Origin: an uncultured Candidatus Saccharibacteria bacterium
GTDB taxonomy: Bacteria; Patescibacteriota; Minisyncoccia; Phycocordibacterales; UBA918
Direction of reading: 5' to 3'
NCBI GenBank assembly: GCA_964402035.1
Contig: CAYOAM010000003.1
Span: 7,921 to 71,920, forward strand
DNA length: 64,000 nt
In this document: positions 17,590-35,720 of the stretch, piece after piece
Layout of the letters: each line of letters starts with the position of its first letter
Numbering within the stretch: position 1 is the first letter of the stretch
The notes under the pieces: generated by a model
The model's input: only the letters and a program-made list of their open reading frames with translations
Database searches by the model: none
Told to the model about the DNA's origin: nothing
Position numbers and translations under genes: made by a program

Positions 17590-19125
17590 ATGGAAACACT
17601 TATGACCTGGTATCGCCGCTTGGAATCGTGGTACGGACGACGCGTCATCATAGGCGTTGTCTTGGCTACCCTACTGCTCGTAACTCTCGGCTTCTATCTT
17701 GGAACACGTGCAAGTGTCGCTGTAGATACACCGGAAACAAAAGCAAAGGAAGTTCGCGTTGCTAGGGCAGGATCGCTACTTAATAATGCGGCAGTCCTTC
17801 GTACTGTGGGAACCGTGCGCGCTGTTTCTGAAGCACGACTCGAAACTGAAAGTGCGGGTCGAGTGACTGCCGTAAACGTTAAAATTAACGATTTTGTACA
17901 GGCAGGTACTATCCTGGCGTCCATCGAAAACGCGAGCGAACGCGCCTCCCTGCTCCAAGCGCAAGGTGCCTATGAATCAATGCTTGCATCAAATGCGCAA
18001 TCAACAATCGGCCTTACTGAAGCAACGGCTGGAGCAGAGAACACTTACCGCACCGCATTTACGACCGCCGATGATGTCGTTCGCAATCTTACCGACGAAC
18101 TTTTTTCAAATGCAAACGAAAGTAATACTGGTCTTAAGATTGATGGCAACGGAGCCGCCCCCCGCCTCAATGCTGAGCGGGCTCTGATCGGGTCCATCCT
18201 ATCTGCGTGGAATACAAAGGTGCAAGACATCCATGCAAATGATCGCGCGGATCTCCTTTCAGAAGCAGGGCGTGATCTCACTCGCATCAGTACATTTGTC
18301 TCTGATCTTGCGTTCTTGGTCGCAGACGAAAAACCAAATGCCGCCTTTTCTGAAGACACACTCGCAAGCTACAAGGCACGACTGGGTGCCGCACGAACAC
18401 GACTCGACGGAACGCTTCAATCAATCACCAGCGCGCAGAACGCACTCAAGAGTGCTCGTCAGTCAGTTGAAGGAGGTGCTGTCGGTTCAGAATCAGAAGC
18501 CCGATTAAAGCAATCACTTGGTGCTCTTCGTGCCGCACAAGCATCATATGAAAAAACAATAGTACGTTCTCCTATCAGCGGAACCGTTAACGCGATCTAT
18601 CTCACTGCAAATACATTTGTGGGAAATGGTGCACCTGCCGCAGTTGTTGCGAACAATAATGCACTTGAAATCACCACCTCAGTTGGTGAAAATGAGCGAG
18701 CGTTTGTTGCTATCGGAAGTACGGTCCGTATCAACGACACATGGGATGGTACGATCACCCGGATTGCACCCGCTATCGATCCACAAACTGGCAAAATTGA
18801 AATAAAGGTTAGTGTAAACGCAAAAAGTGACGAGGCAAAACTTGCAAATGGCACCACGGTATCACTTGCCCTTGCAGCCGAGAGCAGTGCAGACACTGCA
18901 AACGACCTTCGTATTCCGATCAAAGCTTTGAAAATAACACCGCAAGGCACGGTGGTGTTTAGCGTGTCCGACACACAAACACTTATAGCAATACCCATAC
19001 TCATCGACACCATCATTGGCGACAGTGTGCGTATCAAAAGTGGTATCACGAGCGAATCAGTTATCGTCGATGATGCCCGTGGACTCAAAGAGAACGACAC
19101 GGTTACGATCGTTACTGGATCATAA
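17590..19125 (+). CDS. Efflux RND transporter periplasmic adaptor (membrane fusion protein, HlyD family)
   Basis: N-terminal TM. Biotin-lipoyl-like region (VKINDFVQAGTILASIEN), a long coiled coil and C-terminal beta-barrel domains. Confidence 0.8.
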   Translation: METLMTWYRRLESWYGRRVIIGVVLATLLLVTLGFYLGTRASVAVDTPETKAKEVRVARAGSLLNNAAVLRTVGTVRAVSEARLETESAGRVTAVNVKINDFVQAGTILASIENASERASLLQAQGAYESMLASNAQSTIGLTEATAGAENTYRTAFTTADDVVRNLTDELFSNANESNTGLKIDGNGAAPRLNAERALIGSILSAWNTKVQDIHANDRADLLSEAGRDLTRISTFVSDLAFLVADEKPNAAFSEDTLASYKARLGAARTRLDGTLQSITSAQNALKSARQSVEGGAVGSESEARLKQSLGALRAAQASYEKTIVRSPISGTVNAIYLTANTFVGNGAPAAVVANNNALEITTSVGENERAFVAIGSTVRINDTWDGTITRIAPAIDPQTGKIEIKVSVNAKSDEAKLANGTTVSLALAAESSADTANDLRIPIKALKITPQGTVVFSVSDTQTLIAIPILIDTIIGDSVRIKSGITSESVIVDDARGLKENDTVTIVTGS

Positions 19126-19131
19126 ATATCT

Positions 19132-22100
19132 ATGCACTGGCTCTGGAATTTCTTTCTTGATAAGCGTCAATTTAGTGTGCTCTTTATCGTAGCGCTTATT
19201 GCTATCGGTACCTACGCTGCATTTGTGATTCCAAAAGAATCTGCACCAGAAGTCATTGTACCAATCGGCATTGTTGCAACGGTATTTCCCGGTACGTCTG
19301 CATCTGATATTGAGCAACTGATCACCAATAAACTGGAAAAAAAGATTGGCGACGTTGATAACATCGACACGCTTACGTCAGTATCGCGTGATGGTGTTTC
19401 TATTATAACCGCTGAGTTCGATGCTTCTGCAGATATTAATATTTCAATTCAGGAACTCAAAGACGCCGTTGACGCAGGAAAAGGCGAGCTACCACAAGAT
19501 GCGCAAGATCCTGTCGTCACAAAAGTAAATTTTTCAAATGACCCTATTTTAATCGTCGCCGTGTCTGCTGATCTTGCTCCAACTGAATTTACGCGTCTTG
19601 GTGAACAAGTTGCGACCGAACTTGAAGCTGTTGCCGGTGTCTCCCAAGTAACAATCTCGGGTACACAAAAAAGAGAAGTACAGATCGTGGTACGTCCCGA
19701 TGCACTTCGTGCATACAACCTCACCCTGGGTGATATTTCACAAGCCTTGCGCGGAGCGAACATTGAAGTTCCGGTCGGTATAGTAAAGAACGACGGTATT
19801 GAATATGCCATCCGTTTTGAAGGTAGTATTGAAAACCCAACAGCGATTGGTGATATTCCACTTGCAAGTAAGGGAGGTCAATCTATATTCATGCGCGATG
19901 TGGCCCTCGTCATAAATGGTGTCGAGCAAGCAACGACTCTTTCACGCGTTTCAGTAGACGGAGCACCTGCAGAAAATGCGATGACGCTTTCAATATTCAA
20001 AAGTGCCGGCAGTGACGTCACCGCCATGGCACCGGCTGTACGAGCCAAGATTGATGCACTGACGCAGCCCGATGCACTACTTGCAGATTCACAAGTACTT
20101 ATCGTCTTCGATCAGGGGGCAAACGTAAAGAAAGATCTTACGGACCTCACTACTACCGGTTTTGAAACGGTACTTCTGGTTGTTGCTTGCCTCCTACTCA
20201 CGATTGGCTGGCGTGAATCTTTGGTTGCAGCACTTTCAATCCCCCTTTCTTTTGTGATCGCATTCATTGGTCTCTACGCATCAGGGAACACGATCAATTT
20301 CGTCTCGCTTTTTGCGCTCATCCTTGCGATTGGAATTCTCGTTGACTCCGGTATTGTGGTCACCGAAGCGATTCATACACGCATGCGGACGTTGGGAGAT
20401 GCCGACAAAGCAGCACGTGAAGCAATCCGCGAATACGCATGGCCACTTATTGGCGGCACCATGACGACCGTTGCAGTATTTGCACCACTCTTTTTCTTGT
20501 CAGGTATTACGGGAGAATTTATCGCATCTATACCCTACACGATTATTTTTGTTCTCGTTGCATCCATTCTGGTTGCGCTCGGTATGGTGCCATTGATCGC
20601 GATTTACCTCACGAAGCACGGGCAATCAAATCGCTTGGAGGAGATGCAGGAAGTCTATACGCACAAAGCACAAGCGTGGTACCGAGAAAAGCTCATTGCA
20701 TTCCTACAGAATATTCGTGCGCAGCGCATCTTCTTATGGACACTTGCTCTTGCATTTTTTATGACGCTTACACTTCCGGTGCTTGGACTTGTTAATGTTG
20801 TTTTCTTCCCACCTGAAAACGTCGACAATGTGTATATCGAGGTAGAAACAAAACAAGGAACAACACTTGCTGAGACGGATCTATCGCTCCGTGCCGCAGA
20901 AGAAATCCTCTATGAGCTGCCATATGTTGAATCGTTTACATCGACAGCGGGTGCAGGTTCAGTCTTTACCCAGAGCGGAAATGCTGGCGGCAAGTTTGGA
21001 AACATCAGCGTCACACTCTCAGAGACGAGAGAACTTCGAAGTCAAGAAGTAGCAATACTACTTCGTGAAGAGCTGCGCAAGATAACGACCGCTGACTTTA
21101 AAATAACCGAGCAGTCCAATGGTCCTCCGAGTGGAGCGCCGATTGTACTCAAGTTTATTGGTGGCAATCTTGAAGACCTTGCACTCGCGGCAGACAATGC
21201 CGAGAGACTACTCGCTTCGATTCCTGGTACGCGCGATATTGAGGCAAGCACCAAAAATAGCGCAACCGAAATTGTGCTCTCGATCGATCATGCAAAAGCA
21301 AATGCGGCTGGTGTCTCACCCTTTGCTGTTGGCGAAACATTGCGTTCAGCGGTATTTGGTATCACCGCAACCACAATCACTGAGAATGGTGACGATGTTG
21401 ATATTGTCGTAAAGCTCGATGTTGGGCCAAAAACGGTGGATGCGGGAGCAAATCCTGAAATCACCCTTACGGATCTCAAAAATGTTTCTATAAACACAGG
21501 AAATGGCTCTGTTCTTGTTGGCTCAATCATCAATGAAGATCTAGCTTCAGCACGAGCAGCCATTGTTCACGAAGACGAAGAACGGCTGGAAACTGTGTCC
21601 GCGTTTACCACACCAGAGGTTACCACGCTTGAAGTAACGAATGCCTTTAAGGCACGCGAATCGGAACTTAAACTTCCCGCAAACGTGCGTATTTCATATG
21701 GCGGAGAAACTGAGGACATAAACCGATCGTTTACAGAAATGTTCGTCGCTTTGATTGCAGGACTCGTGCTCATGTTGACCATCCTCGTGCTCTCATTCAA
21801 CTCAATCCGTTATTCCTTGTACTTACTCTTGGCCGTACCCTACTCACTCATTGGCGTCTTTATTGGACTTGCGATTACGCGCCAACCACTTTCGTTTACT
21901 TCGCTTCTTGGTGTTATTGCACTTGCCGGCGTCATTATCAACCACGCCATCATTCTGATGGATTCGCTCATTGTGCGTCGCGACATGCGTGCGGATGACG
22001 ACCTTATGCTAATAGTAGCGGATGGTTCCGTCTCTCGTCTGCGACCAATCTTCCTTACGACCATCACCACAATCGTTGGTATGGTACCACTCTCTACCAT

Positions 22101-22257
22101 TTCAGATTTCTGGAGCCCGCTTGCCTACACCATCATGTTCGGACTGGCCTTTGCGATGATTCTCACCTTGCTCCTTGTACCTACACTCTTCTATAGACAT
22201 GAGAAAAAAGTTCGCCAGAAAGCAACAAAAGCGATAACAGCATCGGGCAAGGCTTAA
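19132..22257 (+). CDS. RND efflux pump permease (AcrB/AcrD/AcrF family)
   Basis: 1041 aa with 12-TM topology and two large periplasmic loops. It lies 6 nt after the MFP gene. Confidence 0.9.
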   Translation: MHWLWNFFLDKRQFSVLFIVALIAIGTYAAFVIPKESAPEVIVPIGIVATVFPGTSASDIEQLITNKLEKKIGDVDNIDTLTSVSRDGVSIITAEFDASADINISIQELKDAVDAGKGELPQDAQDPVVTKVNFSNDPILIVAVSADLAPTEFTRLGEQVATELEAVAGVSQVTISGTQKREVQIVVRPDALRAYNLTLGDISQALRGANIEVPVGIVKNDGIEYAIRFEGSIENPTAIGDIPLASKGGQSIFMRDVALVINGVEQATTLSRVSVDGAPAENAMTLSIFKSAGSDVTAMAPAVRAKIDALTQPDALLADSQVLIVFDQGANVKKDLTDLTTTGFETVLLVVACLLLTIGWRESLVAALSIPLSFVIAFIGLYASGNTINFVSLFALILAIGILVDSGIVVTEAIHTRMRTLGDADKAAREAIREYAWPLIGGTMTTVAVFAPLFFLSGITGEFIASIPYTIIFVLVASILVALGMVPLIAIYLTKHGQSNRLEEMQEVYTHKAQAWYREKLIAFLQNIRAQRIFLWTLALAFFMTLTLPVLGLVNVVFFPPENVDNVYIEVETKQGTTLAETDLSLRAAEEILYELPYVESFTSTAGAGSVFTQSGNAGGKFGNISVTLSETRELRSQEVAILLREELRKITTADFKITEQSNGPPSGAPIVLKFIGGNLEDLALAADNAERLLASIPGTRDIEASTKNSATEIVLSIDHAKANAAGVSPFAVGETLRSAVFGITATTITENGDDVDIVVKLDVGPKTVDAGANPEITLTDLKNVSINTGNGSVLVGSIINEDLASARAAIVHEDEERLETVSAFTTPEVTTLEVTNAFKARESELKLPANVRISYGGETEDINRSFTEMFVALIAGLVLMLTILVLSFNSIRYSLYLLLAVPYSLIGVFIGLAITRQPLSFTSLLGVIALAGVIINHAIILMDSLIVRRDMRADDDLMLIVADGSVSRLRPIFLTTITTIVGMVPLSTISDFWSPLAYTIMFGLAFAMILTLLLVPTLFYRHEKKVRQKATKAITASGKA

Positions 22258-23501: not shown

Positions 23502-25244
23502 TTATTTGTTTACGACATCTGAAATATCAGCAATCTCTTTCATGAGACCTGTCTCAATCTGTGCAACACTTTCTTTAAGTCTTTTCAACAATTTGACTTC
23601 TTCGCGGGTTAACTTTCTTTTGGCGCTCGTCTTTTCTAGCATCTTGATATCGTCTTCAATATCAGATTGCATAAAGGCAAACGATTTTCGTACCAACGCT
23701 TGTGCCTCTGACACTTCTCCACGAATACGTTTTTTAAGATGCACACTACTTCTCCATCCATATACAAGTAGTAGCACAAGCATAAGAAGGAGTGCAAGGA
23801 GTGGTATCACAATCGAGAGTATGGTGATCATCATTGAATCGGTTCGCATGAGTACAGGCGCTACGACCGTAACATGTTTTGTTGCGCTCGGTAGACTCAT
23901 CGCACCACGAGCATCCTGTACGAAGACTGTGTATGAAAAGACACCAACATCGAGCTTTTGTTCAAGAGTAAAATATCCATCAACACCACTTTGACCTGAA
24001 AGGGGAATTGTGTCTCCTTTCTCCGACACCATATTCATCGTAACGGTACTATTTGGATATGTGGTACCTGAAACACGAAAGCGTTCACCTGCAACAATGG
24101 TTTCCGGAACGTCCGTTAGTACCGGTGTATCAATCGGATCAACAGTAAATTCAGCAGCAGCGGTACGATAGTTTCCTGTACGGTCGTACACTTTTGCAAT
24201 CACAATATGCTTCCCAAGAGGGACTACCGGTGTTCGATACTGCGTTTCGTCAGCACCATCAATCGTAACAACGTCTCCGGTATCAATTTGAAGTTCATAT
24301 GATGCAATACCTGAACCACCATCTGTGGCACTCAGTATAAAACCAGCCGTAGGATCAGTATGATCCTCTCGCGTAATAGGACTCAAATCAAAGCTCTCTG
24401 GCTTTCTCGTATCGATATGGAGTGGAAAATGGCTGACTGCACCCCACCCTTCACTGTTTCGCGCTTGCACATGAAAATATGAAATGCCGTCAGTAAGGTC
24501 AGTAATCTCTCGCTCCACAATGGGATTCTGGTAGACCACCGTTGGTATGCTTTCCGCTTTTGCATCAACGAGCGTACGAACACTGGTAACATCATTTTCT
24601 AGAGTCCACGCTAAGCGTGCGGTCGTATCTCGATACCAGGCTTTTGTATCTCCATGCGTTGTCGAGGTCACTTTTGGAGCAGCGGGAGTACCTGCATTAC
24701 TCGGTTCATTGGGAGCAATCTCCTCCTCTACCGCTTTCTCAATAAGCACAAACTGTGCCGTGCCTTTTTTTGAAAGTATGTCGGTACCCTCTCCGTCATT
24801 TGCAAGAGCAGCGGCATCTACAAAACTGAGTGAAGCGCTCCCTGCTTTTTTTACACGAAAATTAATCGTTACAATTTTCCCACTAGCACCGGTAAAACCG
24901 GGATTCAGTACTACTCCTTCAAACGACACCGTACCTGCAGTATTTACAAATACCGGCTCTTCTACCCACAATGAAATAATAGATTGGTTTTTTGAAATCG
25001 AGGTAACTTCCAATGTATCGGGTGGAAACGATACGACTCCTGAAAGCGCATTCACGGCACGATCGCTACTTGCTACATATACTGACACTGCAATGGGATC
25101 TCCAACAGTATACGTACCAGACGCTGGGACAAGTGAAAGATTCGCCGCTGATACAGATAGAGGCGCACAAAAGCAGAGAGCTACGATAATCAGACGGCTG
25201 ATCGACGTCGCCTTCGCAACATAAAAAGACAAAAGATCGCGCAC
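23502..25244 (-). CDS. Cell-surface protein with an N-terminal cohesin-like domain, Ig-like domains, and a C-terminal TM plus coiled-coil tail
   Basis: Signal peptide. Cohesin-like block (ANLSLVPASGTYTVGDPIAVSVYVASSDRAVNALSGVVSFPPDTLEV…SFEGVVLNPGF). The C-terminus has a TM (ITILSIVIPLLALLLMLVLLLVY) and a charged helical segment. Confidence 0.5.
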   Translation of the reverse strand: MRDLLSFYVAKATSISRLIIVALCFCAPLSVSAANLSLVPASGTYTVGDPIAVSVYVASSDRAVNALSGVVSFPPDTLEVTSISKNQSIISLWVEEPVFVNTAGTVSFEGVVLNPGFTGASGKIVTINFRVKKAGSASLSFVDAAALANDGEGTDILSKKGTAQFVLIEKAVEEEIAPNEPSNAGTPAAPKVTSTTHGDTKAWYRDTTARLAWTLENDVTSVRTLVDAKAESIPTVVYQNPIVEREITDLTDGISYFHVQARNSEGWGAVSHFPLHIDTRKPESFDLSPITREDHTDPTAGFILSATDGGSGIASYELQIDTGDVVTIDGADETQYRTPVVPLGKHIVIAKVYDRTGNYRTAAAEFTVDPIDTPVLTDVPETIVAGERFRVSGTTYPNSTVTMNMVSEKGDTIPLSGQSGVDGYFTLEQKLDVGVFSYTVFVQDARGAMSLPSATKHVTVVAPVLMRTDSMMITILSIVIPLLALLLMLVLLLVYGWRSSVHLKKRIRGEVSEAQALVRKSFAFMQSDIEDDIKMLEKTSAKRKLTREEVKLLKRLKESVAQIETGLMKEIADISDVVNK

Positions 25245-26056
25245 ACTATTAGTATACCGACAATTGTGTATTTCGTGATCTCAAATGTCTGTGGATGCAG
25301 TGGATAGACAATAGCGTTTCGCGTGTTACCCACTCGATCAATAGCACGCACATAAATCGTAGAACTAAGTTTTTGATTCTTCAATACATAAGGGCTTTCT
25401 GCCTCTCGCCACCAGCCAAAAACACCCTCCTTTACTTCGTAGTGATCAATACCTGAGCTTTTATCCTCTGTTGAAAAGACGAGAAAGTATGCCCCGTCAA
25501 ATACATCAGCGTCGCGCACTACTTCAGGTCGAAATGCTTCCGGGTCTTCATCGTCCATGACGACACCAGCTGCTGTGTGTGATGGTATACCTGCTCCAAT
25601 TACAATCGGACTTATCACCGGTGAAAAAGGAATCAGGGTTCCTAGACCATCGTTCTTGAGCAATTGCACCGCATCGAGTGTCACTGCTCCTTTACCCAAC
25701 GACTGCGCCTTAAAATAGAGTGTGACGACATCAACCTTCCCCATGAAACCACCGGGCGTAATACCAGAAAAATGTATACCTGCGGCGGTTGCTTCAGGTT
25801 TTGATACCCAAAAATTTAGTACGGACGCACTATCATCAAACCCTTCATACTGCAGCAAGGTTGCTGGATAGGTCATCACAGCCTCAAAAGCGTTTGCAGA
25901 AACATCCGTATCTATACTCAGCGTAACGGCAATGGTTTCTCCTACTGCCCCCTCCATAGGCAGAACAGTTATTTCGCTCGTTGCCGCAAACGATGGCTCA
26001 TATACAGCAAACCCGCCAATCACCAACATCGCAACATATGTGTAAAGTAAATACAT
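25190..26056 (-). CDS. Cohesin-like domain protein, C-terminally TM-anchored
   Basis: SEITVLPMEGAVGETIAVTLSIDTDVSANAFEAVMTYPATLLQYEGF…GIHFSGITPGGF, with a C-terminal TM plus RRRRR stop-transfer sequence. Confidence 0.5.
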   Translation of the reverse strand: MYLLYTYVAMLVIGGFAVYEPSFAATSEITVLPMEGAVGETIAVTLSIDTDVSANAFEAVMTYPATLLQYEGFDDSASVLNFWVSKPEATAAGIHFSGITPGGFMGKVDVVTLYFKAQSLGKGAVTLDAVQLLKNDGLGTLIPFSPVISPIVIGAGIPSHTAAGVVMDDEDPEAFRPEVVRDADVFDGAYFLVFSTEDKSSGIDHYEVKEGVFGWWREAESPYVLKNQKLSSTIYVRAIDRVGNTRNAIVYPLHPQTFEITKYTIVGILIVCAIFCLFMLRRRRRSAV

Positions 26057-26060
26057 ACAG

Positions 26061-27092
26061 CTATCCAGTCCAATAAAAGGCCATGATACTAAAGTCGATA
26101 ATATTTATGACACCATCACCATTGAGTTGTGCAGCCTCTCGAACGGAAAACGACTCACTAAGAGTACGCCGATACCAAAATGCAGCAATTGAAAAGTCGA
26201 TCAAGTTTACCGTGCAATCACCGTTTAGGTCTGCTTTCTTGACGCAGGCATTTGTGCCCACAGTCGCAACATTTTTAGACCCAACCTTAAAGGGTACCTC
26301 AATACTAAACGGGCTTATCTCACTACTGGTCGCCGAACGTGATTTTGTATGGTGATCCCCGAGCACCAACACTGCAGTATCAAAATTGTGCAGATAGGTA
26401 CCACGTACATCTGCAGGAGTCTGCACAAAAAACTGTTGCGGAGATTGTACTTCGAGTGTCACGGTCGAAGCTGGTACACTTTGTCCAAAAAAAGTGATGG
26501 GGTCACCACGACGCACTTCGCTTTTATCAGCGGAAAGTGTCGGCGCTATAAAAACTCCATCGATTTTTGTGAGTACATTGCGCGTGAGTGTAACATCATA
26601 CGGTAACGTTGCCGATCGTTGGTGATGTATGTCTTCGCTAAATAGTACAAAATGGTAACTACCTGACGAAAGTCCACTGATGGTTACCTGAAAATTTGCG
26701 AGTGAACTCGCCACGGTTTTTGCTACCCGTTGTCCATCTTTGAGGATCGTAATCGTGCTACCGGGGTAGGCTCTTCCTTCAAACACTATCGTGGCATTTC
26801 CATTTCCCCCGCTCGACCCGCCGCCACCTCCTCCACCGCCACCTCCTCCTGCTACGCAACTACTGGTATCAAGTTCGCACGCAGCTGTACAAGATAGCGA
26901 CCCCGAAGAAAATCCTTGAGATACACACGTCTTGCCGTCAAAATCCGAACCATCGCATGCTTCACCGACCTCAGCTATTCCATCACCACATCCTGGAACA
27001 ATAGCGACTATATCTACATCTTCCCCGTGGAGGGATATGGGTGCAATTAAGAAACATACTACAGAGAAACTGAGTAGAAAAAGATGACGCAT
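26061..27092 (-). CDS. Secreted dockerin-containing protein with a Myxococcus-type Cys-rich repeat and a poly-Gly linker
   Basis: Cys-rich repeat CGDGIAEVGEACDGSDFDGKTCVSQ…C. Linker of G11-SSGGNG. Two dockerin Ca-binding repeats at the C-terminus (DLNGDCTVNLIDFSIAAF… and LNGDGVINIIDFSIMAF). The start was taken at the internal Met that gives a signal peptide. Confidence 0.6.
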   Translation of the reverse strand: MRHLFLLSFSVVCFLIAPISLHGEDVDIVAIVPGCGDGIAEVGEACDGSDFDGKTCVSQGFSSGSLSCTAACELDTSSCVAGGGGGGGGGGGSSGGNGNATIVFEGRAYPGSTITILKDGQRVAKTVASSLANFQVTISGLSSGSYHFVLFSEDIHHQRSATLPYDVTLTRNVLTKIDGVFIAPTLSADKSEVRRGDPITFFGQSVPASTVTLEVQSPQQFFVQTPADVRGTYLHNFDTAVLVLGDHHTKSRSATSSEISPFSIEVPFKVGSKNVATVGTNACVKKADLNGDCTVNLIDFSIAAFWYRRTLSESFSVREAAQLNGDGVINIIDFSIMAFYWTG

Positions 27093-27102
27093 GAATACAA
27101 CG

Positions 27103-28053
27103 CTAGCGCGAAGCAACACTTCGCGCAATAATCCATTGATTATACTTACGAAGACTGAACCGACCTGCACCCAGCAACAAGATCACAATACTGAGTAATT
27201 GCCAAGGAATGATAAAGAAATGATAGCTATTTTGATTTTTGGTATCAGTAGTCCCCCACGACAAATCAAGCACGGCCGTGTACCAACCAAAATGAAAATC
27301 ACTCAATTGTCGCTTGGCTATAGCAAAAAAACCTTCAGCTTTTGGTTCCAATATTTTCCACGTTGATTCAAAGCGTCGAGCACTATTGGGCAAAACACTC
27401 CCTTCGCTCTCATTTGCTGAAAATGTAGTAACGGTACTTCTAAAACTATTTTTTACACCCACTGTTCCTCGCGGCACAATACGATCACCACCGGTGTTGT
27501 TTATGCGATACGAAAATGCAATAGGTAGCTGAGAAAAAAACCTGCCTCCCGGAGCATTAAACTCAAGAACACCACCCCCTTCTTCGATGTCTCCCGCAAC
27601 GCGCAAAAAGACCAAGACGCCAAGCCTTCCACCAATAGAAACTTCACCACCCTCTTGCGTTTTTGGATCTTGTCCACCAAAAAATACAGCAGCAAAATAA
27701 CCGCCCGGTTCAGTTTCTTTTGGTATCGTTATCGAAAGAGGAATCTTAATGCGCTCAAGTGGAGCAAGCGAGACACGACCTCCTGCTTGCATCCAGGTTG
27801 CGAGGCCGTCCTTCGCTCCGACAAAATACGGAGATCCAGTATCGCCGCTCGGTTCAAAATTTTCGTACGAGGGGTAAAATTCTTTTGGCTCGTTTTGTTC
27901 ATTGAGGAGTTCAATGTCAGTGTAGAGTGTCTGTCCTGGGTTCCCAGTTATTTCGATCTTTACGGGAGACAGTGTAAGCGCCTCGACGTGTGGCGCGTGT
28001 AAAATCACCGCACACACCACAAGACCAAAAAATATTCTAAAATTGTATTTCAT
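27103..28053 (-). CDS. Secreted beta-rich protein with a C-terminal TM anchor (accessory protein of the surface locus)
   Basis: Signal peptide, Gly-rich beta-strand pattern, C-terminal TM (HFFIIPWQLLSIVILLLGAG) and a basic tail. Confidence 0.45.
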   Translation of the reverse strand: MKYNFRIFFGLVVCAVILHAPHVEALTLSPVKIEITGNPGQTLYTDIELLNEQNEPKEFYPSYENFEPSGDTGSPYFVGAKDGLATWMQAGGRVSLAPLERIKIPLSITIPKETEPGGYFAAVFFGGQDPKTQEGGEVSIGGRLGVLVFLRVAGDIEEGGGVLEFNAPGGRFFSQLPIAFSYRINNTGGDRIVPRGTVGVKNSFRSTVTTFSANESEGSVLPNSARRFESTWKILEPKAEGFFAIAKRQLSDFHFGWYTAVLDLSWGTTDTKNQNSYHFFIIPWQLLSIVILLLGAGRFSLRKYNQWIIARSVASR

Positions 28054-28098: not shown

Positions 28099-29172
28099 CT
28101 AATAATTGGCCGTTGCCGTGTATGTGAGGGTCGCGCTATAACTTCCTGCCTCTGTGTTTGAGCCAATGTTCGCAAGGTAGCGAGCTGAATAGGTAGTATT
28201 TGCGGTCGCTACCGTTGATGTAGCTACCGTATCAGGAAAAGCGCCAGAATCAAATGCAAAGCCCGAGGCCGCATACGGCGCATTGACCGCACCATTACCA
28301 CCTGCCGCTGTCAAACGCAGTCCGAACTGCTCAGTACCAACAGATGAGGCTGAGTTTGAGGCGCCAATTGCAGTAATCGTGTTCCCACCAGAGGTTAGGG
28401 TATTTCCGTTCAACGTGAGCGAATATCCATTACTTGCATTTGTGCCAACAATCAAATTGTGTGCCTCGACTTCTGATGTGTCACCCGACGCCGTACCCGA
28501 TGCGTATCGTGCAGCGCCAGAGGTCAATGTACCAAAACTGATGCTATTGTCTGAAATACTGAAGGTAATGGACTGAGCGACGGTAGCCGAAATAGCCACC
28601 TGGTCATCGTTCACAATACTGACGGTGATATCTCCAGAGTCAAAACCGTTACCACTTATGGCGATTCCGTATGACGTTGCCACGCTTGGATTGGTCGAAC
28701 TGGCGGCAGTAAAAGAGAAGATCAGTACATCATTGGGGTCGACAGCAGCTGCACCAATTCCATCGGTAGGTGCTGTGAAAGTCCACACACGGCCCTGTGT
28801 TCCTGTTGTAGCTACAGCCCAGCGTGATCCATCAGCAACACCATGCAACGTTTCTGTCGTCTCAAGACCAGTGGAAGGGCCATGGGTAAATGTCACCGAT
28901 GTAGTCGCCTTTCCCGTAAAGTTAAAATCCGATGGGAACGTAATAACAATGGTGTCGGTATTGTCGCTCGCACCTGTTGGGCTCGTGAATTTGATCGAGT
29001 GAGTCGATGTTGCAGGGCTAATCTTGGACGAGGACATTGTATCCGATGCGCTCGTTATTGATGCGGCATGAACGGTGACTCGTGGAAATACCCACGCTAC
29101 GAGCATAGCAATCACCAAGAGAGCACTCAAAGCAGCCCGACGAGAAAAAATATGGGTTACATTCATATGCAT
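28099..29172 (-). CDS. Secreted two-domain protein with a C-terminal TasA/camelysin-like domain (putative fibre/pilin-like subunit)
   Basis: The C-terminal 170 aa are homologous to the C-terminus of the giant protein. The motif ITFSISDNSISFGTL resembles the FFSDKEVSNNTFAAGTLDL motif of TasA/CalY. Confidence 0.5.
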   Translation of the reverse strand: MHMNVTHIFSRRAALSALLVIAMLVAWVFPRVTVHAASITSASDTMSSSKISPATSTHSIKFTSPTGASDNTDTIVITFPSDFNFTGKATTSVTFTHGPSTGLETTETLHGVADGSRWAVATTGTQGRVWTFTAPTDGIGAAAVDPNDVLIFSFTAASSTNPSVATSYGIAISGNGFDSGDITVSIVNDDQVAISATVAQSITFSISDNSISFGTLTSGAARYASGTASGDTSEVEAHNLIVGTNASNGYSLTLNGNTLTSGGNTITAIGASNSASSVGTEQFGLRLTAAGGNGAVNAPYAASGFAFDSGAFPDTVATSTVATANTTYSARYLANIGSNTEAGSYSATLTYTATANY

Positions 29173-29242
29173 AATATTATACGTATGATTATATGCTACT
29201 TACGCGATAAATTATGACAGCACGTTGGGATAACTGTTAATA

Positions 29243-32200
29243 CTAAAAAGTGGCAGTGACTGTGTAGGTAATCACCGAAGTATAATTCCCCGCCTCCGTC
29301 ATACTCTCTATATTCCCAAGATAATATGCATCATAGATCGTGGCTGTTCCATCACCATCACCGGTCCCAATCTCATCGGGGAACGAAGACGTCGCAAAAG
29401 CAAAGGTAGCTGCACTGTATGGTGGTGTCGAGAGCCCTGTCCCAGAAATGACATTGAGCCGCACGCCAAATTGCTCCGTCCCAGGGCTTGATATGGTGGC
29501 TGTTTCGCCAATAGGATTTATGGTAGCTATATCGTAGGTCAAGGTACTGCCATTTATTGACATGCGGTACCCACCCAGTGCATTGGTGACCACAGAAATG
29601 CTATGCGCTGGCTCACTCGGAGACGTTGTGCCAAGGATATCCCCCGTTGCGTAGCGTGCTTCGAGCGCTGAAAGAGTGCCAAAACCGACGGTATTATCGG
29701 ATATGCTCATAGTTATGTAGTTTTCAGGTTCTTTCTCAATCCACCGCACACTAACCATCGCAAAATCCCAGTCACGTCCCACTCCCCCAACCACGTTCGT
29801 TGAGACTGAGGTACGCAAACGCAAGTTCATCAAGTTGTTTTGGGTATCCACAAAGTCGTCTGCTGATTCTTGCTGCTCTGCGACACGCCACGTATCAAAC
29901 CAGCTGTACGATGTTGCGGCATTGGTATCGGTGCCCGGTGTGTTGATCCAGCCTGAACCAACCTCTTCACCTCCAAGACCTGAGTTGCCGGCATAGTCTT
30001 TCATCTGTACGTCATTGGTGAGTGACGCAATATTGGATCGATGCTTCACCGCATAGTGAATACCGGTAATAGAAGTCGAGGACGCCACCGTCATGGGAAA
30101 AGAGAGATTTTGCGAGAACGCATACTCGGCATTCACCGTATCGTCGTCATTGTCTTGTGGGTAGTGGTCGACGGGATATTCGATCGCTGTCGTTGCATTC
30201 CACGTTGAGGTCAACGTGGTGCCCGTGATCGCTTCAGCGGTACTGCGAGTTCTTGTACACTCAGATGCAGTACCACTTCCCCATGATATTTCGCAGAGTG
30301 CTGAATCAGTATTGACGGAACCCACCATCATATAGATGCGATCAAACTGAAGGTTCGCGAGTGCCGCAGGACCGTTGGTGGTAAAGCCCACGCGGACTTC
30401 ACCGGTTGGTGAGATGTAGTCATCAAAGACAAAGCCGGGTATCAAGGTGTCGTTGAAACTGAACGCAAGTTCGATATCAGTGGTACACGCTGAGGCGAAG
30501 ACCGTCGATGACGCTGCTGTCCACACACTGTTTTGAAAATCCCAAAGCGAAATGGAGAAACTTAATCCCGTATTGTTTTTGCACACCTCGGGCTGCACCA
30601 AAAAGGTGTTCATACCCGCAAGCGTCTTCACGTTGGTGAATGAGAAGTAGAAACTGATGGGGGTTGAGGTCGCAGCCATATACACAGTGAATTTGTTGCC
30701 ATCAGATCCAGTGAGTGTCGTACCGATAGCGCCCACGAGGTCTGAGATGAAGTTTGAACTTGTTGCGGCGGTCGTCGTCGCGAAGCCTGATGGTTCATAT
30801 ATGGGATCAATGGCAACTTCGAGCTGCGCAAAATCGGTTTGATGTGCAGTGACCGAATTCACGGTTGAGTAGGTGCGCACAATGACGCGCTTGCTTGATG
30901 TGGTTGAAGCGAAGTTTGAGAGTGGTGTACTAATGACCGTACCGGGAGTCACGGTGCGGGTGGAAAAATAGCCATTGTATATTTCATACGTGCGCTGGGT
31001 ATCGGAGGTGTTGGTGTGATTCGTGCGTCGTGGTTGGAGTGTGCGCCACCCACCACCGGTACATTCACTATCAGCAGCATTATCAACGCCGGTGCTTGAG
31101 ACCCAATCACAGATCTGATGGGTGTATGCATCACCGGTCGTAATGTTGGTGTCTTCAAGTGTGATGAGCATTTTGTTTGCGCCATAGAGGTTGACGCTAT
31201 CAAAATAGATTTGCTTGTCCAAGCCTGAGGTGGTGCGAGTTGCCGTCCAATAGTTGCCGTCGTTCCCCAAGGTCGCTCGCCACGAGTCGAGGTGGTTTAA
31301 GTTGGTCGAGGTCGCAACACCGACGATGAGGGCGCCACCGGTGGGGGCGTATTGGGAAGTCTCGGTTACACGGCGTGGTTCATCAATCCACCGCACACTA
31401 ACCATCGCAAAATCCCAGTCACGTCCCACTCCCCCAACCACGTTCGTTGAGACTGAGGTACGCAAACGCAAGTTCATCAAGTTGTTTTGGGTATCCACAA
31501 AGTCGTCTGCTGATTCTTGCTGCTCTGCGACACGCCACGTATCAAACCAGCTGTACGATGTTGCGGCATTGGTATCGGTGCCCGGTGTGTTGATCCAGCC
31601 TGAACCAACCTCTTCACCTCCAAGACCTGAGTTGCCGGCATAGTCTTTCATCTGTACGTCATTGGTGAGTGACGCAATATTGGATCGATGCTTCACCGCA
31701 TAGTGAATACCGGTAATAGAAGTCGAGGACGCCACCGTCATGGGAAAAGAGAGATTTTGCGAGAACGCATACTCGGCATTCACCGTATCGTCGTCATTGT
31801 CTTGTGGGTAGTGGTCGACGGGATATTCGATCGCTGTCGTTGCATTCCACGTTGAGGTCAACGTGGTGCCCGTGATCGCTTCAGCGGTACTGCGAGTTCT
31901 TGTACACTCAGATGCAGTACCACTTCCCCATGATATTTCGCAGAGTGCTGAATCAGTATTGACGGAACCCACCATCATATAGATGCGATCAAACTGAAGG
32001 TTCGCGAGTGCCGCAGGACCGTTGGTGGTAAAGCCCACGCGGACTTCACCGGTTGGTGAGATGTAGTCATCAAAGACAAAGCCGGGTATCAAGGTGTCGT
32101 TGAAACTGAACGCAAGTTCGATATCAGTGGTACACGCTGAGGCGAAGACCGTCGATGACGCTGCTGTCCACACACTGTTTTGAAAATCCCAAAGCGAAAT

Positions 32201-33178
32201 GGAGAAACTTAATCCCGTATTGTTTTTGCACACCTCGGGCTGCACCAAAAAGGTGTTCATACCCGCAAGCGTCTTCACGTTGGTGAATGAGAAGTAGAAA
32301 CTGATGGGGGTTGAGGTCGCAGCCATATACACAGTGAATTTGTTGCCATCAGATCCAGTGAGTGTCGTACCGATAGCGCCCACGAGGTCTGAGATGAAGT
32401 TTGAACTTGTTGCGGCGGTCGTCGTCGCGAAGCCTGATGGTTCATATATGGGATCAATGGCAACTTCGAGCTGCGCAAAATCGGTTTGATGTGCAGTGAC
32501 CGAATTCACGGTTGAGTAGGTGCGCACAATGACGCGCTTGCTTGATGTGGTTGAAGCGAAGTTTGAGAGTGGTGTACTAATGACCGTACCGGGAGTCACG
32601 GTGCGGGTGGAAAAATAGCCATTGTATATTTCATACGTGCGCTGGGTATCGGAGGTGTTGGTGTGATTCGTGCGTCGTGGTTGGAGTGTGCGCCACCCAC
32701 CACCGGTACATTCACTATCAGCAGCATTATCAACGCCGGTGCTTGAGACCCAATCACAGATCTGATGGGTGTATGCATCACCGGTCGTAATGTTGGTGTC
32801 TTCAAGTGTGATGAGCATTTTGTTTGCGCCATAGAGGTTGACGCTATCAAAATAGATTTGCTTGTCCAAGCCTGAGGTGGTGCGAGTTGCCGTCCAATAG
32901 TTGCCGTCGTTCCCCAAGGTCGCTCGCCACGAGTCGAGGTGGTTTAAGTTGGTCGAGGTCGCAACACCGACGATGAGGGCGCCACCGGTGGGGGCGTATT
33001 GGGATACCGCAAGCGCTTTCTTGCCCACCGTCTCCTCAAGCAGAACATGTTGTACTTCCTTCCCATTCATAATCCAACGATGGAGATACCCAGTCTCAGA
33101 GAGTGACGAAAACAAAGCAAGTATGGCTACCATACCCACCACCATGCCCACTTTTTTGATACACAGATGCGCTACCAT
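29243..33178 (-). CDS. Giant secreted repeat protein (1311 aa): 2 x 549-aa identical repeats plus a C-terminal TasA/camelysin-like domain
   Basis: N-terminal signal-anchor. Two identical 549-aa repeats (SQYAPTGGALIVG…DWDFAMVSVRWI). The C-terminus (ITMSISDNTVGFGTL…EAGNYTSVITYTVTATF) is homologous to 28099-29172. Confidence 0.7.
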   Translation of the reverse strand: MVAHLCIKKVGMVVGMVAILALFSSLSETGYLHRWIMNGKEVQHVLLEETVGKKALAVSQYAPTGGALIVGVATSTNLNHLDSWRATLGNDGNYWTATRTTSGLDKQIYFDSVNLYGANKMLITLEDTNITTGDAYTHQICDWVSSTGVDNAADSECTGGGWRTLQPRRTNHTNTSDTQRTYEIYNGYFSTRTVTPGTVISTPLSNFASTTSSKRVIVRTYSTVNSVTAHQTDFAQLEVAIDPIYEPSGFATTTAATSSNFISDLVGAIGTTLTGSDGNKFTVYMAATSTPISFYFSFTNVKTLAGMNTFLVQPEVCKNNTGLSFSISLWDFQNSVWTAASSTVFASACTTDIELAFSFNDTLIPGFVFDDYISPTGEVRVGFTTNGPAALANLQFDRIYMMVGSVNTDSALCEISWGSGTASECTRTRSTAEAITGTTLTSTWNATTAIEYPVDHYPQDNDDDTVNAEYAFSQNLSFPMTVASSTSITGIHYAVKHRSNIASLTNDVQMKDYAGNSGLGGEEVGSGWINTPGTDTNAATSYSWFDTWRVAEQQESADDFVDTQNNLMNLRLRTSVSTNVVGGVGRDWDFAMVSVRWIDEPRRVTETSQYAPTGGALIVGVATSTNLNHLDSWRATLGNDGNYWTATRTTSGLDKQIYFDSVNLYGANKMLITLEDTNITTGDAYTHQICDWVSSTGVDNAADSECTGGGWRTLQPRRTNHTNTSDTQRTYEIYNGYFSTRTVTPGTVISTPLSNFASTTSSKRVIVRTYSTVNSVTAHQTDFAQLEVAIDPIYEPSGFATTTAATSSNFISDLVGAIGTTLTGSDGNKFTVYMAATSTPISFYFSFTNVKTLAGMNTFLVQPEVCKNNTGLSFSISLWDFQNSVWTAASSTVFASACTTDIELAFSFNDTLIPGFVFDDYISPTGEVRVGFTTNGPAALANLQFDRIYMMVGSVNTDSALCEISWGSGTASECTRTRSTAEAITGTTLTSTWNATTAIEYPVDHYPQDNDDDTVNAEYAFSQNLSFPMTVASSTSITGIHYAVKHRSNIASLTNDVQMKDYAGNSGLGGEEVGSGWINTPGTDTNAATSYSWFDTWRVAEQQESADDFVDTQNNLMNLRLRTSVSTNVVGGVGRDWDFAMVSVRWIEKEPENYITMSISDNTVGFGTLSALEARYATGDILGTTSPSEPAHSISVVTNALGGYRMSINGSTLTYDIATINPIGETATISSPGTEQFGVRLNVISGTGLSTPPYSAATFAFATSSFPDEIGTGDGDGTATIYDAYYLGNIESMTEAGNYTSVITYTVTATF
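29746..33003. repeat. Perfect tandem direct repeat, unit 1647 bp, about 2 copies, in-frame within the giant gene
   Basis: Identical embedded ORFs lie exactly 1647 bp apart (30628-30831 = 32275-32478; 30949-31203 = 32596-32850). The sequence blocks are identical by eye (e.g. 29746… = 31393…). Confidence 0.9.
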
Positions 33179-33179
33179 A

Positions 33180-34748
33180 TTATTTCTCTACAATCGGATC
33201 AGACTCAATAACAAATGAAATGTCGTCAGGTTCTAGCGATACGTCATATGTTTCTTGCTCAAGTTGCAACTGTGTATCCCCACGAATTTCACGGGTCTGA
33301 GAAAACATTGTCCGCGCATTAGTATCAAAACCGACAAATGCACCCCCTTCTGCGGATGCCCAGATCACTTTCCCTTCTACATACTCAAACGGTGAATCAA
33401 GCAACATGGTTGTGTTGTCGGCGAGTTTTAAGAAACCAATCGCACTTCCGAGCGCATGCTCCTTGAGCCACGCTTCGGTACCACCTTCTCTTGTACGTAT
33501 AAAATAGAGCGTTTTCCCTTGATCTAATGGCTGTATTTGCGTTACAAATCCTCCCACGAAAAATAATCTTTCATGTACCACCATACGTTCTGCAGTATCA
33601 GTTTGAAAACGAAGCATGTGGGGACCTGGATCTACTAATGCTTGCAGCGTCACCGCATACGTATCTTCATCAATGCCGACCACGGTATGAGGGACAAGCA
33701 CTCCATCCACATACACCGTTGTTGATGCTTGTGGAGCAGGCGGAGTCGAAGCACTGGTGGTTGCGTTTGAAGAACTTGTAGCAGTTGTCTCAACGGTGTC
33801 AGGCTCATCATGAAGCACCTCTATATCTACTACCTCGTCACTGTTGGTCTGCACTGTTGTCTGATCGACCTCCTCGTGCTCAGTTTCAATCTGATCCACA
33901 GCATGCTCGACGTCACTATCACTTAGGTTCTGAATCGCAGGATCAGCTTCACTTTGTTCTATAGTCGAGACGGATTCCAGTGTGCCTACATCTACTGAAA
34001 CCTCGGCAGGCAACTCTTGAGGAATCTCCGCTAAAGCCGGCGAAGAATCTTCAGTGACTTCTTCTGGCGCTATATCTATGATCAAACTAAACAACGTCTC
34101 AACCGTTGGTTGCATAAACTCAATGACGGTCTGCGCAGCGTCAGAGACCATGTCTACTATGGTCTCTGCAGCGTCAGCAACCTGCGTAACAGTGTCTGAA
34201 ATGGTGCCTTGTATGGCAGCAAAGAATCCTTCTTTTGTGGTACTTCCTTGGTTAAAAATAAAAGTAGGCAGTGTACTCATCTCAAAAAACGCCGCATTCG
34301 CAATCTCGGCCTCAGAGTATAGTGTTGTGGTCGCAGATGTCGTTGCAATAGGCTGGGGTAACACCGCAATATCTTGTACGACGTCAGGCACTACCGGCAA
34401 CACCGGTTCCGATAGCACCGGCACAAGTTCCGCATCTTCAAAACCAACCTCCACATCACTATTGATTGGCAGATCAACATCATCTGGCGCGGAAGAGACT
34501 ATAAATTCACTCGGTTGCGATGGAGGATCAGCTATCGTTTCGGTGCCTTGTCCAATATCTTCCGCAACTGGAGGTATTTCATTCTCGGGTGCAATATCGA
34601 TGGGTGTCGTCTCTAGAGCAGGCGATGTCGCACCAACCTCTTCTATCTCTTCTGCATAAGTAAAAGAAACATAAAAAAAGTTGTACGCGAGTACCAGTAT
34701 CACGCATAACCACAGAAAAAAATTCTCCTTTCCTCGAAAGAAATTCAC
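33180..34748 (-). CDS. Extremely acidic secreted protein (Asp/Glu/Pro/Val-rich) with a folded C-terminal domain
   Basis: N-terminal TM/signal and about 350 aa of acidic low-complexity sequence. The C-terminal 170 aa form a non-repetitive domain. Its stop abuts the giant gene's start, suggesting an operon. Confidence 0.55.
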   Translation of the reverse strand: MNFFRGKENFFLWLCVILVLAYNFFYVSFTYAEEIEEVGATSPALETTPIDIAPENEIPPVAEDIGQGTETIADPPSQPSEFIVSSAPDDVDLPINSDVEVGFEDAELVPVLSEPVLPVVPDVVQDIAVLPQPIATTSATTTLYSEAEIANAAFFEMSTLPTFIFNQGSTTKEGFFAAIQGTISDTVTQVADAAETIVDMVSDAAQTVIEFMQPTVETLFSLIIDIAPEEVTEDSSPALAEIPQELPAEVSVDVGTLESVSTIEQSEADPAIQNLSDSDVEHAVDQIETEHEEVDQTTVQTNSDEVVDIEVLHDEPDTVETTATSSSNATTSASTPPAPQASTTVYVDGVLVPHTVVGIDEDTYAVTLQALVDPGPHMLRFQTDTAERMVVHERLFFVGGFVTQIQPLDQGKTLYFIRTREGGTEAWLKEHALGSAIGFLKLADNTTMLLDSPFEYVEGKVIWASAEGGAFVGFDTNARTMFSQTREIRGDTQLQLEQETYDVSLEPDDISFVIESDPIVEK

Positions 34749-34803: not shown

Positions 34804-35340
34804 CTAGTGTTCCTGCTGTCTACGAATAAATAACATTAAAACCGCAATCATCGCAAAGAGCGATACGGCCATCAAGGGAAATGTGATGTACCCAAACTCA
34901 AACACAATGCGTTCTGCACACTCGACCCCAGGAGCTGCGGTAGGACACACAATAAACGGCGAGCCGCCCATCTGCAAATAATGGTGATAGAGAGCGATCA
35001 CGCCTCCCACAAAAGACAGACCGAGAATATAATCTGCAATATTTTTATCATGCTTCCATAGTGCCATGCCTGAGAGGAGTGCTATGGGATAGAGTGCGAT
35101 ACGCTCAAACCAACACAAGCCACAGGGTGTAAAACCAAATACTTCTGAATACACCAAAGTCAGTATAATACCCGCGATCGATAGCAAAAATACTTTAAGA
35201 AGCGCAAATCTCCCCACAAAATTGCGAAGCTCGGTAAAATCAGCTTTTTTAAGTACGATAAAAAGCGCTACTGCACCGACCTGGAGACCAATGGTACCGA
35301 CCGCCAGTAGATAATTTATATCCGCTATGTAGTCAAGCAT
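34804..35340 (-). CDS. dsbB: Disulfide bond formation protein B (DsbB/BdbC family)
   Basis: 4 TM. First loop Cys pair CGLCWFERIALYP (compare E. coli DsbB C-x-x-C…YER). Second Cys pair CPTAAPGVEC. Confidence 0.7.
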   Translation of the reverse strand: MLDYIADINYLLAVGTIGLQVGAVALFIVLKKADFTELRNFVGRFALLKVFLLSIAGIILTLVYSEVFGFTPCGLCWFERIALYPIALLSGMALWKHDKNIADYILGLSFVGGVIALYHHYLQMGGSPFIVCPTAAPGVECAERIVFEFGYITFPLMAVSLFAMIAVLMLFIRRQQEH

Positions 35341-35345
35341 AGATA

Positions 35346-35720
35346 TTATTTCGGAAGCTCACAGCTTGTCGTTTCTGCAAGCTCTTTGAGTGTCAGCTCG
35401 CCACTCTTCCTCGTGCCATCCTTAAATATCCAGAGCGGATACCCTTCTACCTTTGCATCAATACACACTTGTGTCTGGTTCTTACGATCCGGGGTTGAAC
35501 ACTCAATATAGGGAAGTTTTTTTTGTGAGTTACCAAAGATTGCCTTTTGTGATTGGCAATGTGGACACCAAAATGCGCCATAGAACTTTGCTCCAGCATC
35601 AGTGAGACACTGCGCAAACCCATCAAGTTTTCCCGGCAATGTCTTCGTCCAAACGATGGTGCCAATAAAAAGGACAACCAATAGTATAAGCCCCACAAAC
35701 CATCCATATTTTTTGACCAT
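35346..35720 (-). CDS. Membrane-anchored thioredoxin-fold thiol-disulfide oxidoreductase (DsbA/BdbD-like)
   Basis: N-terminal TM. CxxC active site FWCPHCQSQ in a thioredoxin-fold context. Lies 6 nt upstream of the DsbB gene. Confidence 0.75.
   Translation of the reverse strand: MVKKYGWFVGLILLVVLFIGTIVWTKTLPGKLDGFAQCLTDAGAKFYGAFWCPHCQSQKAIFGNSQKKLPYIECSTPDRKNQTQVCIDAKVEGYPLWIFKDGTRKSGELTLKELAETTSCELPK

Follow-up and report, generated by a model that had tools for sequence, protein, structure and literature searches.

It is still being asked how bacteria of the Candidate Phyla Radiation (CPR), which are mostly uncultured epibionts, get to their hosts and hold on to them, and two adjacent genes raise the question here in a narrower form: do two proteins that end in the same domain build a fibre, and of which kind? 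The genes lie in a 64,000-nucleotide (nt) stretch of DNA from an uncultured Candidatus Saccharibacteria bacterium (contig CAYOAM010000003.1 of assembly GCA_964402035.1, positions 7,921 to 71,920 of the forward strand; hereafter the window, in whose coordinates all positions are given). Their products are a protein of 357 amino acids (aa), called A below, and one of 1311 aa, called B. An earlier note on this DNA took the common domain for a relative of TasA/camelysin displaced to the C-terminus. The locus is instead a further example of the known Pam strand-swapping fibre and not a TasA relative, and it quite probably encodes a Pam-type pilus of a CPR/Patescibacteria bacterium. The parts of A and B that carry this reading are as follows (Ig, immunoglobulin).

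28099..29172, minus strand: A, 357-aa two-domain pilin with signal peptide, Ig-like N-domain, linker and C-domain.
28102..28524, minus strand: C-terminal domain of A (aa 217-357), a Pam pilin acceptor domain, truncated Ig-like; the match to the family model NF058581 covers aa 224-357.
28525..28602, minus strand: inter-domain linker of A (aa 191-216, QVAISATVAQSITFSISDNSISFGTL), with alternating hydrophobic residues; putative donor strand.
29243..33178, minus strand: B, 1311-aa large subunit with an N-terminal hydrophobic signal/anchor, two 549-aa modules and an A-type linker and C-domain.
29246..29731, minus strand: aa 1150-1311 of B, comprising the linker and the C-terminal Pam domain; identity with A 202-357 is 49%.

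The earlier note had proposed a paralogous pair with a common C-terminal domain, and this was right. Both open reading frames (ORFs) are present where it placed them, BLASTP aligns A 202-357 with B 1155-1311 (49% identity, 64% positives, one gap, E = 6e-37), and all four residue blocks that it quoted fall inside that alignment. In each protein the last residue is also the end of the common domain. B had been described as giant; it is indeed 1311 aa long, but much of that size comes from two copies of one 549-aa module. A search for further C-domain ORFs in the 64-kb window found none besides A and B.

Membership of the C-domain in a known family is directly established. The NCBIfam model NF058581 ('CPR_Pam_pilin_C, Pam pilus system pilin subunit'; curated cut-off 55 bits) was matched in an NCBIfam scan by A with 80.4 bits and by B with 56.1 bits, and two giant homologues pass it likewise (P0245 and P0284; 69.9 and 55.5 bits). 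A hidden Markov model of the C-domain built from A homologues gives 162.5 bits for the domain of B. No Pfam family matches the C-terminus of A or of B above threshold. The Fimbrial family PF00419 produces full-length, sub-threshold matches to the isolated C-domain, with E 0.061 for A, a best E of 0.0023 among 14 domain copies, and a score of 14 bits against a threshold of 25.6. Searching the PDB with the C-domain profile returned no chain at E <= 10.

The domain thus matches another family than the one first suggested, and it is hardly credible that a Peptidase_M73 jelly-roll has moved to the C-terminus here and builds TasA-type fibres. TasA polymerises by donor-strand complementation. A short motif likeness exists, S-D ... 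F-G-T-L here against D-A-T-F-A-S-G-T-L in TasA, but the gap between F and GTL is two residues in TasA and zero here. Peptidase_M73 (PF12389) matched neither A nor B (E <= 1), nor any of 50 A homologues, nor, at E <= 10, any of 14 domain copies. When the domain profile was aligned by hhalign with TasA, using a sequence that we checked to be identical to PDB 8AUR chain A (the fibre form), the probability was 0.25%, unrelated segments were paired and the motifs were left unaligned. TasA is absent from the fold-search matches, too. TasA/camelysin fibres (5OF1, 8AUR) do resemble the present system in having a secreted subunit, a conserved strand with 'GTL' and, in TasA, donor-strand complementation. 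They differ in fold (jelly-roll there, truncated Ig expected here from the family assignment) and in position, since their domain stands directly after the signal peptide whereas here it is C-terminal in 150 of 150 listed relatives; no SipW-type context was noted at this locus. We rejected TasA membership on the Pfam scans, the hhalign comparison with 8AUR and a motif likeness limited to F..GTL, and the reading of the domain as a relocated TasA should be dropped. The idea of a donor-strand fibre, which came with that reading, fares better: its mechanism is probably roughly right and is supported by homology with Pam, only the family being wrong, and the arrangement, which had been called novel, is already known from Pam pili.

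What then is the ISDN-x3-FGTL block that had suggested TasA? We scanned conservation in 26 windows of 12 residues over 14 domain copies from 8 loci. The most conserved window is the linker ITFSISDNSISF (0.84) and the second is the last strand TEAGSYSATLTY (0.74). The ISDN-x3-FGTL block falls within the linker, and the NF058581 match of A begins after it, at aa 224. Because of this top conservation and its position just N-terminal of the family match, we read the block as part of the inter-domain linker and as a probable donor strand. The linker strand is kept in every copy, giants included, which suggests that it is used, as a donor would be.

The domain is widespread and strictly terminal. 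A phmmer search with the single sequence of B's domain found 373 cluster representatives at E <= 1e-3, of which 150 were listed. In all 150 the match ends at the last residue or at most two residues short of it, and in all 150 an aromatic residue is among the final three. Their carriers are 121-2889 aa long, some of the short entries being gene fragments, and the passengers of the domain include beta-helix/NosD, DUF2341 and DUF7483 domains. One 191-aa relative (P0414) consists of a signal peptide, the linker strand and the C-domain only, like a classical chaperone-usher pilin.

Pam pili, the first CPR-specific fibre with a structure, are filaments of Candidatus Mycosynbacter amalyticus studied by cryo-electron microscopy (bioRxiv 10.64898/2026.03.03.709456). 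Their pilins PamA and PamB each consist of an N-domain built as a nine-strand sandwich, one linker strand, and a C-domain of truncated Ig type into which a neighbouring subunit inserts its linker; conservation is highest in the linker and in the site that binds it. Also encoded in the operon are two PapD/FimC-like chaperones (PamC and PamD), each ending in a C-terminal transmembrane (TM) helix, as well as PamE, PamT as a tip pilin of one domain, and PamR, an RbmA-like terminator or anchor (same preprint).

Protein A reproduces the plan of the Pam pilins, and this too is directly established. It has a Sec signal peptide at about aa 1-36 (cleavage between VHA and A), an Ig-like N-domain at about 37-190, the linker at about 191-216 and the C-domain at 217-357. 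Its AlphaFold2 (AF2) model begins with a signal helix and a ten-strand N-domain (predicted local distance difference test, pLDDT, ~88); after a long strand at 202-216 comes the C-domain, whose pLDDT of ~50 is as expected for the monomer of an incomplete fold. More than 1000 homologues of ~355 aa exist; identities among the 120 listed run from 59 to 72%, an exact copy excepted, and mean column identity is 65% over 50 aligned homologues. These numbers fit an abundant structural protein, and A is the probable major shaft subunit of the fibre. A sequence search of the PDB with A alone gave nothing meaningful.

The chaperone of the system is best sought in the gene 45 nt downstream of A, which has 512 homologues.

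27103..28053, minus strand: C, a protein of 316 aa that carries two Ig-like domains and is anchored in the membrane by a TM helix at 284-315 (from AF2 and Foldseek).

The AF2 model of C (pLDDT 87.3) has two beta-sandwiches, a hairpin at 117-152 with a disordered tip at 135-141, and the TM helix. Its fold class is established by Foldseek searches of the PDB, in which the top match is RbmA (E 5e-12), followed by the E. faecium WxLIP 9i1y (E 1.8e-11), by 9i25_C, a WxLIP bound to a long WxL protein (E 1.9e-11; best TM-scores, 0.39/0.47), and by the chaperones CfaA, CsuC and DraB of chaperone-usher systems (E ~1e-8). The family PF06030 (DUF916/WxLIP_PGBD) touches the N-domain in 9 of 47 C homologues, always below the gathering score (best 5.6e-4). 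PDB sequence searches with C alone and with a profile of its family returned nothing meaningful. From its modelled fold C is a probable pilin chaperone, PamC/PamD-like and WxLIP-like, and the best membrane-anchored candidate for that role.

If the locus works as a Pam system does, A would form the shaft. C, held in the membrane by its C-terminal helix, would cap the open groove in the C-domain of a new subunit with a strand supplied by its long hairpin, and the linker strand of the next subunit would then replace that of C (donor-strand exchange), so that the fibre would grow from the membrane without an usher. B, which has its two 549-aa modules where A has the small N-domain, would enter the same fibre through its own linker and C-domain and would be a large accessory subunit, probably adhesive or host-contacting. 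Polymerisation, the identity of the donated segment, the chaperone role of C and the adhesive role of B are the parts of this scheme that we infer.

The likeness to Pam pili (NF058581, NF058579) covers the family of the C-domain, a CPR host, the absence of an usher, the layout of A, the two conservation peaks at linker and last strand, which correspond to the Pam linker and its binding site, and the adjacent two-beta-domain protein with a C-terminal TM helix, predicted to act as chaperone. There are differences as well. One chaperone-like gene is recognised here against two, PamC and PamD; A has no cysteines whereas PamA and PamB have paired ones; one subunit carries the two 549-aa modules; three further genes (D, E and F, described below) are always linked; and the named homologues come mostly from Paceibacteria-type groups whereas the preprint stresses Saccharimonadia and Microgenomatia. 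No protein of the locus was matched to PamR or PamE.

Several points weigh against a Pam-type pilus. B exceeds the NF058581 cut-off by just 1 bit. No PamT equivalog was found: A reaches 37.8 bits against a cut-off of 240, and does so through its C-domain only. The modelled C-domain of A (pLDDT ~50) is too poor for fold comparison. Aligned by hhalign with E. coli FimA, FimI, FimF and FimG, the C-domain gave a probability of 0.17%, not significant, from shallow alignments, in which the C-terminal strands were paired; the C family against FimC was not significant, again from shallow alignments, and C has no NCBIfam match. RbmA heads the Foldseek list of C, and it is the terminator/anchor PamR, not the chaperones, that the preprint likens to RbmA, so C could have a PamR-like anchor role. 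The likeness to Pam comes through the family model and the published description, the structures 25PZ and 25QA not being among our PDB sequence or fold matches. Finally, the present lineage is not known to make filaments.

The structural matches of C also bear on an explanation without a fibre, in which C would hold the C-domain by strand complementation and A and B would be displayed singly on the surface; for Firmicute WxL/WxLIP clusters such anchoring has been proposed. We consider this unlikely. It would account for the WxLIP structures being the best of C by TM-score, one of them in complex with a long WxL protein, and for the PF06030 contacts of C homologues; DUF916 matches at E < 1e-10 are on record in CPR genomes, among them TM7x (a 329-aa protein) and a Kazan bacterium (Table S5 of PMC10599100). 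The cluster logic is the same, too: Firmicute WxL (Csc) clusters (PMC9772566, PMC10599100) combine small and large proteins sharing a strictly C-terminal domain with a TM-anchored two-Ig WxLIP (DUF916-DUF3324-TM; 9i1y, 9i25) and predicted strand completion. Their aromatic-x-aliphatic motifs have a similar spacing, FGL at 283 and YTA at 351 in the C-domain being 68 residues apart, as reported for large WxL domains. Yet the C-domain contains no Trp and no Trp-x-Leu motif, PF13731 gives no match to it at E <= 10, and no LPXTG partner was seen. The PDB fold library includes 9i25, but the C-domain profile retrieved no PDB chain at E <= 10. Published accounts of WxL complexes have them bound to peptidoglycan, not as filaments. 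The C-domain passes the Pam pilin model, and Pam proteins of the same plan form filaments seen by cryo-electron microscopy. The conservation of the linker strand in all copies, giants among them, also suggests use as a donor.

A Pam-type fibre can be set beside chaperone-usher pili (Fim/Pap, the archaic Csu, CFA/I) as well. Common to both are a pilin whose incomplete Ig domain takes up a donated strand (predicted here), a C-terminal strand of the form G-x-Y-x-A-x-L-x-Y...aromatic together with the weak full-length PF00419 matches, and the fold class of C, which is that of CfaA, CsuC and DraB. Here, in contrast, there is presumably no outer membrane and there is no usher (none of the cluster proteins has an usher-like Pfam match), the candidate chaperone is membrane-anchored, and the putative donor strand is internal between two domains and not N-terminal.

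Protein B raises questions of its own, which concern the repeated part that precedes its linker.

31358..33004, minus strand: module 1 of B (aa 59-607), including a unique 25-nt in-frame junction at 31358-31382.
29736..31357, minus strand: module 2 of B (aa 608 to ~1148), its DNA 100% identical to 31383-33004.

The two modules are thus identical over 1622 nt of DNA and joined through the 25-nt junction. In another sample this species is represented by a contig (L002) whose gene has one module and encodes a 747-aa protein. Is the second module real? The window comes from a 461.7-kb metagenome contig of SPAdes type; in such a contig a short-read loop may be resolved wrongly, and the true gene would then have one module (747 aa). 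The perfect identity of the copies and the single copy in the other sample speak for such an error. Against it stands the unique in-frame junction, of which ~21 nt have no match in the single-module contig, and that contig, at about 4x coverage, may itself be a collapse. Homologues of B moreover fall into two classes, with one module (~750 aa) or two (~1300 aa), and the 26 other listed two-module proteins have modules that are 39% to 99.8% identical within a protein. In five proteins, B and four homologues, this identity is at least 99%, and the four homologues are merely 57-64% identical to B's module; the 22 remaining proteins are at 39-84%. Such a pattern points to repeated homogenisation or to duplication and loss, and argues for a real duplication; we rate an assembly artefact as unlikely. 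As far as these comparisons go, the modules of B are under concerted evolution or recurrent duplication and loss, and their copy number probably varies between samples.

The module has only sub-threshold or inconsistent Pfam/NCBIfam matches in B and its homologues (Baseplate_wedge, Kelch, DUF6921), and none in PHROGs. We could not equate B with the 'tail fibre-like protein' of the preprint, the module being without a reliable family assignment. Since proteins of 121-2889 aa with varied passengers all end in the C-domain, we take B to be probably a large accessory subunit of the fibre, with an adhesive role suggested by its position and size.

The gene order around A is conserved, as direct comparison of loci establishes, and brings in three more genes downstream of C.

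26061..27170, minus strand: D, a Cys-rich secreted protein in which a Gly run and an Ig domain accompany a C-terminal dockerin (Dockerin_1 score 24.8 bits, cut-off 22.9).
25190..26056, minus strand: E, with a cohesin-like N-domain (Cohesin, 17.8 bits, below cut-off), a second beta domain and a C-terminal TM helix.
23502..25244, minus strand: F, a paralogue of E in which cohesin-like and Ig-like domains are followed by a TM helix and, at the C-terminus, a charged tail.

E and F match each other at 2e-12. The Cohesin score of F is 22.8 bits, just under the cut-off of 24.1, and an orthologue of F (in L003) has a precomputed Cohesin match; E also has an OmpL47-type barrel match of 27.5 bits, below cut-off. 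Eight independent loci have a common order: an accessory C-domain protein (giant, or of 300-370 aa), A, C, D, E, F. C is present in all eight and is followed by D in all eight, and E is syntenic in seven, the eighth contig stopping before it. Nearly all named homologues of A's loci, of B and of C belong to CPR bacteria (one C homologue is labelled Syntrophomonadaceae); those of B and C come from Parcubacteria, Kaiser-, Taylor-, Nomura-, Wolfe- and Doudnabacteria and Paceibacterota, and some related loci are labelled Saccharibacteria.

The D/E/F trio may be an anchoring module or hold the equivalents of PamD and PamR; E and F, as TM-anchored beta-domain proteins, might fill the PamR role. The Pam preprint (10.64898/2026.03.03.709456) mentions neither genes of the D/E/F type nor WxL, and a literature search found nothing that connects CPR pili with cohesin-dockerin pairs, or WxL proteins with donor strands. 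Beyond the preprint the locus therefore adds three things: 1.6-kb modules that evolve in concert and vary in copy number, the syntenic dockerin/cohesin-like trio, and the parallel with WxL clusters. We offer the role of the trio and the WxL link as hypotheses.

Taken together, and tentatively, these additions allow a wider reading, less probable than the Pam pilus itself. Pam pili and the Firmicute WxL/WxLIP clusters may represent two branches of a single system without an usher, in which a membrane-anchored DUF916-type two-Ig protein completes and hands on a C-terminal incomplete-Ig module with passengers of 0 to ~2,700 aa. In the Paceibacteria-type variant a dockerin protein and two cohesin-like proteins of the membrane may be linked to the fibre and possibly anchor it. 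The 549-aa modules, kept identical and varied in number by recombination, may provide length or antigenic variation of a host-contact subunit. We regard this combination as possible but as more likely wrong than right. If Pam and WxL were one system, WxL complexes might also be strand-swapped assemblies.

As regards the question of how CPR bacteria hold their hosts, the locus extends the Pam polymerisation module to Parcubacteria/Paceibacteria-type lineages. The module is borne by a very conserved shaft pilin and by large, fast-changing subunits, which are natural candidates for host recognition, and both the concerted evolution of the B modules and their difference in copy number between samples point to a varying host-contact subunit. 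The linked dockerin/cohesin-like genes and the WxL likeness are leads on the anchoring and the origin of the system.

Expression signals and neighbouring genes complete the locus.

29211..29240, minus strand: promoter-like site of the form TTAACA-18-CATAAT, with TG; it lies in the 70-nt gap that precedes A.
33180..34748, minus strand: G, a very acidic protein of 522 aa that abuts the start of B and has a hydrophobic segment at its N-terminus.

The promoter-like site matches a sigma-70-like consensus at 10 of 12 positions, the best in a 13.5-kb scan. The number of such sites in this 13.5-kb region equals the expectation from shuffled sequence, so the site upstream of A is to be read as a consensus match; as such it would suit a strong promoter that serves the major-subunit gene separately. 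Rfam and tRNA scans found a single tRNA-Gln, distant from the pilus locus. G has no family match and occurs in this species' locus only, no copy having been found ahead of the giant gene in the other loci examined. Genes for DsbB and a thioredoxin-like membrane protein lie immediately upstream of the cluster, at 34804-35720 (minus strand), an adjacency also seen in this species' locus only; B has 13 cysteines, D nine and A none. Near the cluster, at 17590-22257 (plus strand), lies an RND-type efflux pair, a membrane-fusion adaptor and a 1041-aa permease, which is unexpected in a bacterium presumed to have no outer membrane.

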